NCBI RefSeq assembly: GCF_024223415.1
Contig: NZ_CP100500.1
Direction: 5' to 3' (one strand)
DNA length: 64,000 bases
Origin: Escherichia coli
GTDB taxonomy: Bacteria; Pseudomonadota; Gammaproteobacteria; Enterobacterales; Enterobacteriaceae
The notes under the pieces are model-generated. The model worked only from the letters and a program-made list of their open reading frames with translations, ran no database searches and was not told where the DNA came from. Position numbers and translations under genes: made by a program. Every line of letters starts with the position of its first letter. Within the stretch, counting starts at the first letter, position 1. Shown here piece after piece: positions 8,922-16,507 of the stretch.

Positions 8922-9451
8922 TGATCTATCCCCCAACAGGCTAATGCGCTTTCCTGGTCACGACGAATAACCTGTCCATAGCAGTTATTTGAACGGATAC
9001 GGCAGTCACGCCCACCATCCTTTATCCACCAGCGAATCGCCTCGCAGGCGCCTTTTCGATCACCGGCATTAAGCCGCTTATAAAACGTCGACGGGAAACA
9101 CTTACCGGGGCCAATGTTATAGGGACAGAATGACGCAATACCCGCTTTCTGTGGTTCGGTCAGAGGTACTTTAATATTGCGCTCCACCCATGCCAGTGCC
9201 TTATCACGTTCAATAGCGTTAACCTGGTCGCATTTTTCCTTCGACAGCTTCATTCCGGGAAAAACGGGTTTTCCATCCACCATCGTGGCACCCCGACAGA
9301 TGGTCCAGATGCCGGACCCATCGCGGTATGCCGTTGTGTGGTTACCCTCTTTTTCGTCCAGAAACTGATCAAGTATCTGAGGAGCAGATGCGCCAGCACC
9401 AATCAGCGCCAGAACGGCAGCCGACAGGCCGTATCTGATTTTTGCGTTCAT
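8918..9451 (-). CDS. SAR endolysin (T4-lysozyme-like GH24 muramidase with N-terminal signal-anchor-release segment)
   Basis: 177 aa; Gly/Ala-rich N-terminal segment [16 protein letters not shown]; E-x8-D-x5-T catalytic pattern ([16 protein letters not shown]). Confidence 0.88.
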
Positions 9452-13269: not shown

Positions 13270-13542
13270 TTACCTCCAGATCCGTTGCTGGAATGTGCGG
13301 GACGGACGCGGTGGGCGTTCGGAGTAAGGAAGCCTGACGGAGATTATCCAGTGACGATAATCGAGGCTGAGGGCTTTCTTAATCTCGTATCCGTGTCTGC
13401 GGTAACACTGAATCAGCCATTCGGCCTGTTCTTCAGTGCATGGAGGGTGTTGGTACCAGTCGGTTTTAAATACGCGAGAACGCCGCCCATGCCTGCTGGC
13501 ACGAACGGCATCAGAATTGTGATTTTTGGTATTGTGCGCCAT
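13270..13542 (-). CDS. Hypothetical nin-region protein (90 aa from ATG 13542)
   Basis: ORF only; ORF-track start at 13623 is TTG. Confidence 0.4.
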   Translation of the reverse strand: MAHNTKNHNSDAVRASRHGRRSRVFKTDWYQHPPCTEEQAEWLIQCYRRHGYEIKKALSLDYRHWIISVRLPYSERPPRPSRTFQQRIWR

Positions 13543-13734
13543 TTGTTTTCTCTGCTGGCGCAGCAGGTGCCAGTTGTTCAGGCTAGCGTGCAGATTGTAA
13601 ACCAGAATTCCCGGAAAAAACAAAACTCGCTCAGGCTGGTATGCTAATCATCACAGTCATGTTTGATGGGGTTAGCTCACATTGGGTGAGGGTTCACGGC
13701 GTTTTCACTAATAATTTACCGTCCCCGCTATACA

Positions 13735-14127
13735 CTACTGCCCAGTTCTAACGAAGTTTTTGAAGGAAACAACTGCCTGATAGAGGTTTGGTTGACAGCC
13801 AAACATATTATCGCAAAAAGGCTGGATGAAAATTCTTGAGGATCCATCTTCATTTGGCATTTTACTCACTTGATAAGCGAGGAGTGGACTATTTGGTGAG
13901 GGGTTATAAGTGGAAATTAGCGTGTCTGTCGCCGTTTGAATTTTCCATGCGGAATTATTAGCCAACCAGAATTGCGCGCGTTTCCAATAAAAGTCACATT
14001 GCTTTTCATCTTTACATGTTAGTGGCTTCATTGCTTCTGCTTTCAACGCAGGATCGACCTTTGCTGCACACCCTCCCAACATTACTGTTGCAATCATTAC
14101 ACCTGCAACTAAAACAAGTTTCTTCAT
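13735..14127 (-). CDS. Hypothetical outer-membrane lipoprotein (moron), 130 aa
   Basis: MKKLVLVAGVMIATVMLGGC signal with lipobox LGGC, +2 Ala; four further Cys; visibly AT-rich segment bounded by hok terminator region. Confidence 0.6.
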   Translation of the reverse strand: MKKLVLVAGVMIATVMLGGCAAKVDPALKAEAMKPLTCKDEKQCDFYWKRAQFWLANNSAWKIQTATDTLISTYNPSPNSPLLAYQVSKMPNEDGSSRIFIQPFCDNMFGCQPNLYQAVVSFKNFVRTGQ

Positions 14128-14270
14128 CTCCCTGCCCCCATCAGTAAAAGTTCGGTTCTCTGATAACTAGAGTTAATCAACGGAAAAACGCCGAAGCGGG
14201 TTAAGTGTGGGTGCATTGAGGATGCCTGACTCATCAGAGGTGGCGAGGGATTTCTCCCTCGCCTGGTCTC

Positions 14271-14426
14271 TTACTCCTCAGGTTCGTAAGCTGTGAAGAC
14301 AGCGACCTCCGTCTGGCCGGTTCGGATTCGTACCTCGCAGAGGTCTTTCCTCGTTACCAGTGCCGTCACAATGACGGTAATACAGATGACGATCAGGGCG
14401 ACTAACATCGCCTTTTGCTGCTTCAT
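14271..14426 (-). CDS. Hok/Gef-family type I toxin (HokD/RelF-like)
   Basis: 51 aa MKQQKAMLVALIVICITVIVTALVTRKDLCEVRIRTGQTEVAVFTAYEPEE matches Hok family; in-frame upstream ATG at 14483 also present. Confidence 0.8.
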   Translation of the reverse strand: MKQQKAMLVALIVICITVIVTALVTRKDLCEVRIRTGQTEVAVFTAYEPEE

Positions 14427-14637
14427 AGCCTGCTTCTCCTTGCCTTTCGGCACGTAAGAGGCTAACCTAGATTTGCCGTTCATAGATTGAGCCTCAGATT
14501 AATGTTAAGCGTCTTGCCGGACGCGTAATGTTAACTGGGGCTTTTCTCTATCTGCCTTTTGGGGTTCATGCCTGAGACAGATAGCCTCAAGCACCCGCTG
14601 CAATTCTACTTAACTCTCCTTTTCCCGCAAACCATTT
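14427..14637 (-). promoter_or_regulatory. hok mRNA leader; expected location of antisense Sok-like RNA (plus strand) and mok-like reading frame
   Basis: By analogy with hok/sok loci; GGCGAGGGA-TTTC-TCCCTCGCC hairpin just 3-prime of hok at 14233-14254; exact sok ends not determinable. Confidence 0.3.
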
Positions 14638-14721
14638 TTATCCCCAGCGGCAAATCGAATACACCACCAGCGCCACCGCCATCGCAATTCCTACCGTTGT
14701 GAATGCTTCAGGCCAGGTCAT
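14638..14721 (-). CDS. Small hydrophobic peptide (27 aa, MTWPEAFTTVGIAMAVALVVYSICRWG), translationally coupled to upstream gene
   Basis: ATG overlaps TGA of 14718-15233 gene (ATGA); single predicted TM helix; not in ORF track (under 60 aa). Confidence 0.35.
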   Translation of the reverse strand: MTWPEAFTTVGIAMAVALVVYSICRWG

Positions 14722-15233
14722 CGTAAAATATCCTCCGCGCTTATCAGTCCATTTCGTTTCAGGTAATCCATCGCCTTCTCCGGTAATTTGCAGTCCGGCT
14801 GAGCTTTTTTCAGTTGACTGACCAGTCGTTTAACCCACATTGTTAATTCGCCAACCTGATTACTGGATGCCAGTGGATTGTCGGCTTTACCCAGAATGAC
14901 AGCACAGCAGGCCTCTTTGAGCACCCAATCAACAGCATCTTTCCATGCTCCTGTTTCGACTGGTGGATTCTCACGCTTTACCTGTTCATAAAAGCGCACG
15001 GCTTTAACCAGTCCTTCTGATGTCACCGGGACTGACGGGGCAGTGAATAAGGCCTGAATCTCATAGCTCGGCCTGTCGTTGCAATCCTCTTTTGTCGGTA
15101 CATATTTCCAGTCACCAACCCACATCTTCTCCTGAAAGTCCGTAACGCCTTTTTTCACGTAGCGATATCGCCATACAACTGGTTTTGCCTGCCCTGCCGT
15201 TTCATGCCCTTCCTGATAATTAATCTCGCTCAT
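14718..15233 (-). CDS. Hypothetical protein (171 aa)
   Basis: ATG start overlaps stop of upstream small acidic ORF (ATGA); no homolog recognised. Confidence 0.55.
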   Translation of the reverse strand: MSEINYQEGHETAGQAKPVVWRYRYVKKGVTDFQEKMWVGDWKYVPTKEDCNDRPSYEIQALFTAPSVPVTSEGLVKAVRFYEQVKRENPPVETGAWKDAVDWVLKEACCAVILGKADNPLASSNQVGELTMWVKRLVSQLKKAQPDCKLPEKAMDYLKRNGLISAEDILR

Positions 15234-15406
15234 TCATCGGCCCACTCATCACAATATGCTTCGACCGGAGTTTTTCCTGCTTCGTAGTCATCACGCCAGG
15301 CTTCAGCATCAGCAGCACTTCCACCACGTAACTCTGCATAATCCATTAACAGTTCATTCCATTCTTCAAAACTGACGTTGTATTTAGTTGAACCAAAACC
15401 AGCCAT
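15230..15406 (-). CDS. Hypothetical small acidic protein (58 aa)
   Basis: ATG at 15406; MAGFGSTKYNVSFEEWNELLMDYAELRGGSAADAEAWRDDYEAGKTPVEAYCDEWADE; stop overlaps next ATG. Confidence 0.4.
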   Translation of the reverse strand: MAGFGSTKYNVSFEEWNELLMDYAELRGGSAADAEAWRDDYEAGKTPVEAYCDEWADE

Positions 15407-15581
15407 TTTGTTCTTCCTCTTCGTCTTTTATTTCGTGATATGAGTAATTGCAGTAGTTAAAGAAAATTTCTTTTGCTTCGTCATGAATTTCATCAGGTGT
15501 TGCGTCATCGTCCACTTCGAATACATCCTCAAAATCTCCACCAGCTATTCCCGTTTCAATAATTATTTTGAACTTTCGCAT
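15384..15581 (-). CDS. Hypothetical small acidic protein (65 aa)
   Basis: ATG ORF; strongly acidic; overlaps next ORF start. Confidence 0.4.
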   Translation of the reverse strand: MRKFKIIIETGIAGGDFEDVFEVDDDATPDEIHDEAKEIFFNYCNYSYHEIKDEEEEQNGWFWFN

Positions 15582-15674
15582 TTCACTACCGCCCTTTCGG
15601 GTGGCCTCCTGCTGTTCTGAGGGTGCAGAAATCCCTACGGTTAAGGATTAAATTTTTAACAGTGCTAAATTTAA

Positions 15675-16031
15675 TTATTCAGTTCTTGATTTTGCCGCCC
15701 TGCGTATCCGCGCTTTCGCGTTACGCTCAATATGAATTAGCTTTTCTATATTTTTTCGCCTTTCCCGTTCCTCCTGGCGCAAGAGCCTTACATCATCTGC
15801 CAGTCTGGTTTCTCTTTTCGCCACAGAGAGCATCCAGTCAAATGGCTCCACAACTGCACCGCAGATTTTACAGCGGACCTGACGCTCTTTTTCGTCAACC
15901 CGGACAGAGGCGTGATGACAATATGGTCTTTCCGATGGCTCATAAAGAAAATTAACCTGATTACGTGGGTCATCCTCTTTTACCGGAAATAAAACAATAT
16001 TACTTAACTCATCTTCTGGTTTTATTTCCAT
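15675..16031 (-). CDS. Hypothetical zinc-finger-like protein with basic C-terminal helix (118 aa)
   Basis: CHH...CKIC motif; C-terminal Arg/Lys-rich heptad-like segment. Confidence 0.5.
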   Translation of the reverse strand: MEIKPEDELSNIVLFPVKEDDPRNQVNFLYEPSERPYCHHASVRVDEKERQVRCKICGAVVEPFDWMLSVAKRETRLADDVRLLRQEERERRKNIEKLIHIERNAKARIRRAAKSRTE

Positions 16032-16084
16032 GCTCCTCTCCTTTGATGCGAATGCCAGCGATAATTGAAGCCTGATAGCTAATT

Positions 16085-16507
16085 TTACTCACAGCCCCCC
16101 TGATAATTTCCCTGATAAAACGCCAGCACGCGCTGCATAACTTCGCTCTTCCTGCACTCGCAACAGATTATGTTCTGACGCCTGTCGTAGCGGCGTATTT
16201 CTCCGTCTGGTAATGACCAGATAAGGTCAGGATCAACCACAACCGGTTTTTTCACCTTTGCCCTGGATAGTTTTTTGCGGGCATTTTGCCAGTCCTTACG
16301 AGCCTGTTCAGACGGGAATAACCCGTAACCAGAGTTGTATACATCACCACTGGCAACCAGCTCTCTGGCAAGAACGCTCAGCAGATATCTTGTCGCACCT
16401 GTTTTCGCTTCCTGTTGTCGTAACGTCTCGCGCGCACTCCGGCGTACCAGCTCAACAACCTGCCCTTTAATTTTTTCCCGCTCTTCTTGTGTAAATACTT
16501 TTGCCAT
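16085..16507 (-). CDS. Hypothetical nin-region protein (140 aa from ATG 16507)
   Basis: ORF-track start 16522 is TTG overlapping upstream stop; ATG 15 nt downstream. Confidence 0.5.
   Translation of the reverse strand: MAKVFTQEEREKIKGQVVELVRRSARETLRQQEAKTGATRYLLSVLARELVASGDVYNSGYGLFPSEQARKDWQNARKKLSRAKVKKPVVVDPDLIWSLPDGEIRRYDRRQNIICCECRKSEVMQRVLAFYQGNYQGGCE

Follow-up and report, generated by a model that had tools for sequence, protein, structure and literature searches.

The question raised by this locus is whether a very short open reading frame (ORF), lying between a chain of small prophage genes and the toxin gene hok, is a gene at all, and if it is, what it belongs to. The window is a stretch of 64,000 nucleotides (nt) of Escherichia coli contig NZ_CP100500.1 (assembly GCF_024223415.1), and the ORF lies on its minus strand at positions 14638-14721, where it would encode a hydrophobic peptide of 27 amino acids (aa). 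It is the last cistron of a chain that runs from a DUF7167 gene through genes for a 58-aa and a 171-aa protein to the peptide. A preliminary description, made from the letters of the window, had drawn attention to the ORF, paired its product with the 171-aa protein and attached meaning to its position beside hok. We will argue that the ORF is probably a genuine overlooked phage gene for a 27-residue bitopic inner-membrane microprotein, here called the 'WPEAF' family, that it is a self-contained cassette, and that its product would act by helix packing, with a host protein as the most likely partner.

The evidence that the ORF is coding is comparative. A tblastn search finds the peptide in 94 phage records at 59-100% aa identity, and a degenerate DNA pattern collected 148 intact copies from viral contigs. 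All 148 are 84 nt long and encode 27 aa with zero internal stops; they comprise 58 DNA variants and 35 peptide variants. Entropy and the ratio of nonsynonymous to synonymous polymorphism (pN/pS) were measured over codons 7-25, which the search pattern leaves free. The third codon position is the most variable and the second the least (entropies of 0.48, 0.28 and 0.90 for positions 1, 2 and 3), pN/pS is 0.43 in the peptide frame as against 0.74 and 1.72 in the other two sense frames, and the amino acid replacements are conservative, with a mean BLOSUM62 score of +0.53 compared with -0.53 in the open antisense frame. A further set of 80 loci was anchored on the C-terminus of the upstream protein only. 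The region is present in 37 of these, 35 of them with an intact 27-codon ORF and the other 2 with indels in a G-run at the stop codon, while the remaining 43 are cleanly without the peptide gene. Read directly and without a formal test, the codons of the window's ORF are mostly common ones (GCG, GTG, CTG), plus two GGA. We believe that these comparisons bear out the suggestion of the preliminary description that the ORF is a real gene for a peptide with a single transmembrane (TM) segment; the gene is conserved, and annotation has passed it over.

The signals for translation are conserved as well. A core Shine-Dalgarno (SD) sequence lies at -16 to -4 in 145 of the 148 copies (GGAGG in 130), and the start codon is part of an ATGA in 145, the TGA of which ends an upstream ORF of at least 30 codons in 117. 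Folding of the local RNA gives less structure than in shuffled controls (z = +1.9). A promoter scan returned no promoter-like site on either strand; the same scan, which demands a strict consensus, did not call the TAGAAT -10 element of hok. The peptide would be translated by coupling or re-initiation with the upstream gene, alongside the delayed-early genes after induction.

If the peptide gene is real, the next question is whether it forms a unit with its neighbours. Homology between phages breaks exactly at the start and stop codons of the peptide ORF. This is clearest in the loci that carry an upstream module ending in NGLISxEDxLR and a stop codon, where CGATGA is followed either by the peptide ORF or by an immediate switch to unrelated DNA. 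At least six unrelated genes precede the peptide gene, among them an Ea22-like C-terminal module, DUF551, a class ending in 'ERMPDDRQEVNQ' and a gene like L0139 of phage 933W. At least seven unrelated continuations follow its stop codon. In this window the continuation is hok/sok; elsewhere it is a DUF4222 gene that starts 4-5 nt later, just upstream of xis/int, in phages of the BP-4795 type, or parDE on the opposite strand, or one of three different terminator-like hairpins, or a second small membrane ORF. The peptide ORF exactly fills an unannotated gap of about 85 nt in BP-4795, in PhiR12_1 and in a 97.7-kb plasmid, and in a hok locus without the peptide the homology begins only at about the -10 element. 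Since the peptide follows many upstream genes and precedes many downstream contexts, it has no fixed tie to hok or to the 171-aa protein. The functional pairing with the 171-aa protein has to be given up, because upstream partners vary and 43 of the 80 loci with the same upstream module do without the peptide gene, and so does any meaning in the proximity of hok, which is also seen without the peptide. Both arrangements appear to be products of phage mosaicism rather than functional units.

The edges of the cassette have some further peculiarities. QEVNQ and a stop make up the last 4-5 codons of several unrelated upstream genes, and they are the same because they contain the SD region CAGGAGGTGAATCAATGA of the peptide gene (L084-L087, at about 1480-1504); the 5' edge of the cassette thus seems to overprint the C-termini of its neighbours. 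The site just 3' of the gene behaves like a slot for varying toxin-antitoxin modules. Its occupant here is hok/sok (window 14271-14640, minus strand); E. coli O103:H2 12009 and phage ArgO145 (L245 1201-1971; L248 801-1520) have parDE there, on the opposite strand; and in the Rac phage 442/2 hok occupies the slot without the peptide gene. In the context class 'TGGGGGTAA/AAACGTTCGCCGGGATT...AAGGAGGGAATATGTCGGATG' about 35 nt and a strong SD are followed by a second unannotated small membrane ORF (MSDDISLAMEGALVVIVVVGVYCLVVLLMERLGN), and read-through fusions of the peptide with this second ORF occur in the databases (P0081, P0087). The gene does not have the form of a moron with its own promoter and terminator, as no promoter was found and its start overlaps the upstream stop; a terminator hairpin stands directly behind it in only some contexts.

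How widespread is this cassette? The 84-nt ORF occurs in 1633 of 5426 complete E. coli genomes (about 30%), with 3108 copies in all and up to 7 in one genome. Plasmids carry 163 of the E. coli copies. Plasmid copies sit in arrays of ea-type genes on plasmids of about 90-100 kb (for example NZ_CP013030.1, 97.7 kb, L246 2501-2584), which may be phage-plasmids. The ORF is not called by the Prokaryotic Genome Annotation Pipeline (PGAP) and is unannotated in the records of 933W, BP-4795, VT1-Sakai, ArgO145 and POCJ13. It does appear in a few GenBank entries, under the names 'hypothetical protein' or 'bacteriophage protein', from E. coli, Shigella, E. albertii and Salmonella. Searches of Pfam, NCBIfam, PHROG and PADLOC gave no family match for the peptide or its relatives, and searches of the literature and of supplements with its sequence gave nothing relevant.

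To find more distant relatives, 21 variants were made into a profile, and 1.84 billion representative proteins were searched with it at E<=1e-3. This gave 134 diverged representatives of 25-50 aa, and the consensus of the family is [0-15 aa]-x-W-P-(E/D/Q)-A-F-x-x-V-G-x-A-x-A-x-A-x-x-x-(W/Y)-A-x-x-(K/R)-(Y/W)-G. Those of their contigs that could be read are viral or phage-like and keep the motif over a range of 32-66% guanine plus cytosine (GC). The diverged members lie in same-strand arrays of small ORFs, mostly overlapping the upstream stop, and their neighbours match phage single-stranded DNA-binding protein, sliding-clamp and DNA-binding families, as in early or replication regions. A tblastn search with three of them found nothing in the phage collection. 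A scan of genome contigs for the SD plus the motif gave 26 matches, 24 of them by chance; the two real ones are in Escherichia sp. MOD1 and in a 369-bp contig labelled Acinetobacter. The latter, JQCU01000559.1 (L226, labelled Acinetobacter idrijaensis), has a peptide ORF of the E. coli type, identical with the one in Escherichia sp. MOD1-EC7003, and is probably a contaminant of the Acinetobacter assembly.

What the peptide might do has to be read from its residues. Its mean Kyte-Doolittle hydropathy over residues 6-24 is 2.2. W3 and G11 never vary, P4 and A6 hardly ever do, and the small residues line up in two stripes side by side, one of G11/A15/S22 and one of A6/A13/A17. In the wide family the net charge is -1.2 on the N side and +0.8 on the C side, and 94% of members have a lysine or arginine within 6 residues past the TM segment. 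With one TM helix, no more than 50 aa and no soluble domain, the peptide has the build of the small proteins that modulate membrane proteins. It would insert into the inner membrane as a single TM helix with its N-terminus out and its C-terminus in, an orientation predicted by the positive-inside rule from the acidic N side and the basic residues that follow the TM segment; the two membrane interfaces would then be occupied by W3 and W26. The small-residue face (the invariant G11 with A15 and S22, and A6, A13 and A17) would pack tightly on another TM helix. A comparison of upstream and downstream contexts found no conserved neighbouring gene that points to a phage-encoded partner. From the residue pattern we would suggest, tentatively and as something short of probable, that the helix on which it packs belongs to a host inner-membrane protein that the peptide modulates. 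Self-assembly into a pore or toxin we regard as rather unlikely. A broader and decidedly speculative idea is that WPEAF peptides are early factors of phages in general which dock through their Gly/Ala face on one conserved host inner-membrane machine (division, FtsH, Sec/YidC or respiration, for example) or on membrane-acting defence effectors, and so would be a new class of microproteins of host takeover or anti-defence, overlooked by annotation on account of their small size.

Several observations weigh against our reading of the ORF as a gene for a helix-packing microprotein. Its size is not above chance, as 4.5 kb contains 74 ORFs of 20 aa or more; its significance comes from the comparative evidence and not from its length. 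Disrupted copies exist, with a 1-nt deletion in phage 689R5, a TGG to TAG change at codon 3 in POCJ13 and the G-run indels at the stop, so the gene is accessory, and at least some phages can do without it. All 58 variants leave the antisense frame open, with a pN/pS of 0.39. The ratio alone therefore does not tell the coding strand, and a similar value on the antisense strand is an expected by-product of coinciding wobble positions. Searches of the literature and supplements found no ribosome profiling (Ribo-seq) or proteomic record of the peptide. The choice between partner binding and self-assembly as its mode of action rests on the residue pattern only. As an observation apart from these, some peptide variants have an expanded GCGATG unit (AMAMAMAM) and others have G-run indels at the stop codon that lengthen the C-terminus (P0020, P0083, P0102; L010, L021); these could be slippage-prone sites or sequencing errors.

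The most serious of the other explanations is that the peptide is a membrane-damaging small toxin, or an exclusion or abortive factor, which assembles with itself and depolarizes or permeabilizes the membrane as type I toxins and viroporins do. A short and very hydrophobic peptide with a small-residue face like a glycine zipper would suit self-association, the gene adjoins a slot for toxin-antitoxin modules (hok here and parDE elsewhere), and its retention in phages of very different GC fits an action on the lipid bilayer that is independent of any target. Against this, over 13500-16200 Rfam shows no antisense RNA besides sok, the promoter scan was empty on both strands, the mRNA lacks a structured leader and is less structured than shuffled controls, and the strong SD and the coupling to early genes imply unrestrained expression. 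Up to 7 copies are tolerated per genome. NCBIfam, Pfam and PADLOC give no match, and hhalign comparisons with Ldr and TisB sequences show no relation. We consider the toxin explanation unlikely. It is far less probable still that the ORF has no functional product and is conserved for a role of its DNA or RNA, such as an upstream element of the hok promoter, a spacer or a cis device for polarity or coupling. Chance ORFs of this size are common, this one ends a few nt ahead of the hok -35 region, and it is absent from 43 of the 80 loci with the upstream module. An element of that sort, however, would not be expected as the same peptide amid at least seven unrelated downstream sequences and at least six upstream genes, nor with a protein-like substitution pattern and an amino acid motif that persists across DNA of 32-66% GC, and no RNA structure signal was seen.

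It could also be argued that the ORF is a C-terminal TM tail, which -1 ribosomal frameshifting or a fusion would join to the proteins encoded upstream, giving membrane-anchored isoforms. At the ATGA the peptide frame is indeed offset by -1 from that of the upstream gene, and in-frame fusion products are found in the databases (P0034, P0139, P0141, P0142), but these entries are rare and look like the results of indels. A canonical slippery heptamer X_XXY_YYZ within 45 nt occurs in 0 of 59 distinct contexts, the peptide keeps a dedicated SD and ATG, and some copies stand apart from the upstream stop or share a single nt with it, so we give this explanation very little weight. Least of all do we believe that the open antisense frame is the real coding strand, which we regard as next to impossible. 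In favour are the absence of stops in any of the 58 variants and the pN/pS value already given. However, no start codon is consistently present in it and its extent shifts with each flanking context; its first start codon in the window falls inside the region, at 14699; its replacements are non-conservative by the BLOSUM62 score; and the boundaries of the module coincide with the start and stop of the sense frame. A conserved membrane microprotein that would pack on another helix is, in our opinion, what the evidence as a whole favours.

The features of the locus are collected below.

Table. Features on the minus strand of the window around the peptide gene, listed from the peptide outwards
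Feature	Position	Strand	Basis
27-aa single-pass membrane microprotein gene ('WPEAF' family), MTWPEAFTTVGIAMAVALVVYSICRWG	14638..14721	-	ORF and conservation
Shine-Dalgarno GGAGGA, 9 nt 5' of the peptide ATG, within the last codons of the 171-aa gene	14731..14736	-	direct reading
ATGA stop/start overlap from the 171-aa gene to the peptide gene	14718..14721	-	ORF list and letters
171-aa protein, PHROG 660 (unknown function)	14718..15233	-	PHROG match
58-aa acidic protein, PHROG 519 (unknown function)	15230..15406	-	PHROG match
DUF7167 protein, 65 aa	15384..15581	-	Pfam match
hok mRNA 5' leader / sok region, neighbouring module outside the peptide cassette	14421..14596	-	Rfam RF01794, 112 bits, E 4e-26
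Putative hok promoter -10 (TAGAAT)	14603..14608	-	direct reading, position relative to start of Rfam match
mok/hok reading frames (hok 14271-14426)	14271..14483	-	ORF list, PHROG match and annotation of relatives

The four minus-strand ORFs of 65, 58, 171 and 27 aa lie where the preliminary description had placed them, and the letters agree with it on the ATGA overlaps that join the 58-aa to the 171-aa gene and the latter to the peptide, on the overlap of the 65-aa and 58-aa ORFs in different frames (23 nt), and on the acidity of both of these proteins. The 65-aa ORF matches DUF7167 (PF23768) with a Pfam E of 4e-14, and its relatives get the same name from PGAP. Close relatives have 60 aa instead of 65, and their usual overlap with the 58-aa gene is 8 nt, ATGGCTGA. 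The greater length and the 23-nt overlap (15384-15406) are peculiar to this window and arise because a TGA to TGG change removes the usual DUF7167 stop. In the 58-aa protein the same base replaces D by G at residue 2. A Pfam search with the 58-aa protein gave no match, and PADLOC gave none for any gene of the chain.

A match of the 171-aa protein to a well-known nin protein had been named beforehand as a finding that would count against the preliminary description. No such match appeared: the protein falls in PHROG 660, has no Pfam match even at E<=10 and is not recovered as a member of the ead/Ea22-like family (PF13935). Its C-terminal 70 or so aa are a module common to proteins annotated as ead/Ea22-like, and the sharing is limited to that part. 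Its homologues are confined to E. coli and Shigella, with domain shuffling among them. The AlphaFold2 model is unreliable, with a predicted local distance difference test (pLDDT) score of 50 and a predicted template modelling (pTM) score of 0.29, and the matches from a PDB sequence search were designed TIM barrels that we judged to be spurious.

On the other side of the peptide gene, the Rfam match places the 5' end of the hok mRNA near 14596, behind the -10 element, so the peptide stop codon (14638-14640) lies 41 nt 5' of the hok mRNA start and just ahead of the -35 region. At E<=1 over 13500-16200 Rfam matched no RNA family other than sok, which is hok's own. By family matches and the annotation of relatives, the window at large is a Rac-like prophage that carries replication genes, DUF1627, a Ren-like gene, the chain, hok, DUF968 and RusA. 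Order and size alone suggest that the remaining large ORFs are genes for Q, lysis and terminase. The chain sits between the replication genes and Q, in the equivalent of the nin region. Downstream of hok a 130-aa ORF (13735-14127, minus strand) has a lipobox-like N-terminus (VMLGGC) and matches PHROG 16082, of unknown function, with a weak match to a Cor-like exclusion family (E 0.009); from these features it may be a lipoprotein moron.

The kind of result presented here is not surprising, and its value lies in a well-defined and easily testable target in major prophages of pathogenic E. coli. Pfam, NCBIfam, PHROGs and PADLOC all lack a family for a gene that occurs in about 30% of the complete E. 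coli genomes. Shiga-toxin phages carry it, including 933W, VT1-Sakai, VT2-Sakai and BP-4795, and the reference records that were checked leave it unannotated. Mutagenesis has clear targets in the strong N-terminal motif and the invariant glycine, and the natural stop variant at codon 3 offers a route to a knockout that leaves the upstream gene untouched. If, during induction, the peptide does modulate membrane integrity or a membrane protein of the host, it would bear on prophage induction, lysis timing or exclusion in pathogenic E. coli. More generally, mosaic junctions together with unannotated gaps can expose genes for microproteins, and this peptide is a clean example.

It remains to compare the peptide with known systems. 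It is unlike a holin, since it lies in an early or nin-type region, about 5 kb from the ORFs read as lysis genes by order and size (8454-9451), and its C-terminal tail is merely C-R-W-G. It resembles the type I toxins (Hok/Gef, Ldr, TisB, Ibs, ShoB) in being small, hydrophobic, prophage-encoded and predicted to be in the inner membrane, and in this window it stands beside one of them. It differs from them in that no antisense RNA, restraining leader or promoter of its own was found, and in its strong SD and upstream coupling. Rfam and the promoter scan returned no type I antitoxin small RNA, and the flanking sequences differ between contexts. Neither the peptide nor the family alignment matches a Hok/Gef profile in PHROG, NCBIfam or Pfam, whereas the adjacent mok/hok ORF does.

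The company that the gene keeps is that of the lambdoid ea and nin accessory genes (ead/Ea22-like, DUF551, DUF7167, EaA). Like them it occurs in mosaic cassettes with tight translational coupling, and it shares their niche, either in the distal pL operon near xis/int or in a nin-type region. However, those genes encode soluble proteins of 60-350 aa that are annotated, while this one encodes a membrane peptide of 27 aa that is unannotated in the records checked.

The closest parallel in kind is with the small single-TM regulators, such as AcrZ, MgtS, KdpF and CydX of E. coli, SidA of Caulobacter and gp56 of phage SPO1. These are proteins of 25-50 aa with one TM helix that make helix-helix contacts with a larger inner-membrane protein, and they have often been missed by annotation. 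In its probable way of working the peptide resembles AcrZ, MgtS, KdpF and SidA, and like them it is tiny, a lone TM helix with next to nothing in the way of a soluble domain. It is unlike these regulators in having no sequence relation to them (KdpF, TIGR02115, is its best NCBIfam match at 14.7 bits, below the cut-off of 26.85) and in being borne by phages and coupled to early accessory genes, not placed in the operon of a partner. We believe it is best filed as a new uncharacterised family among the phage-encoded membrane microproteins, one that is real, widespread and overlooked.

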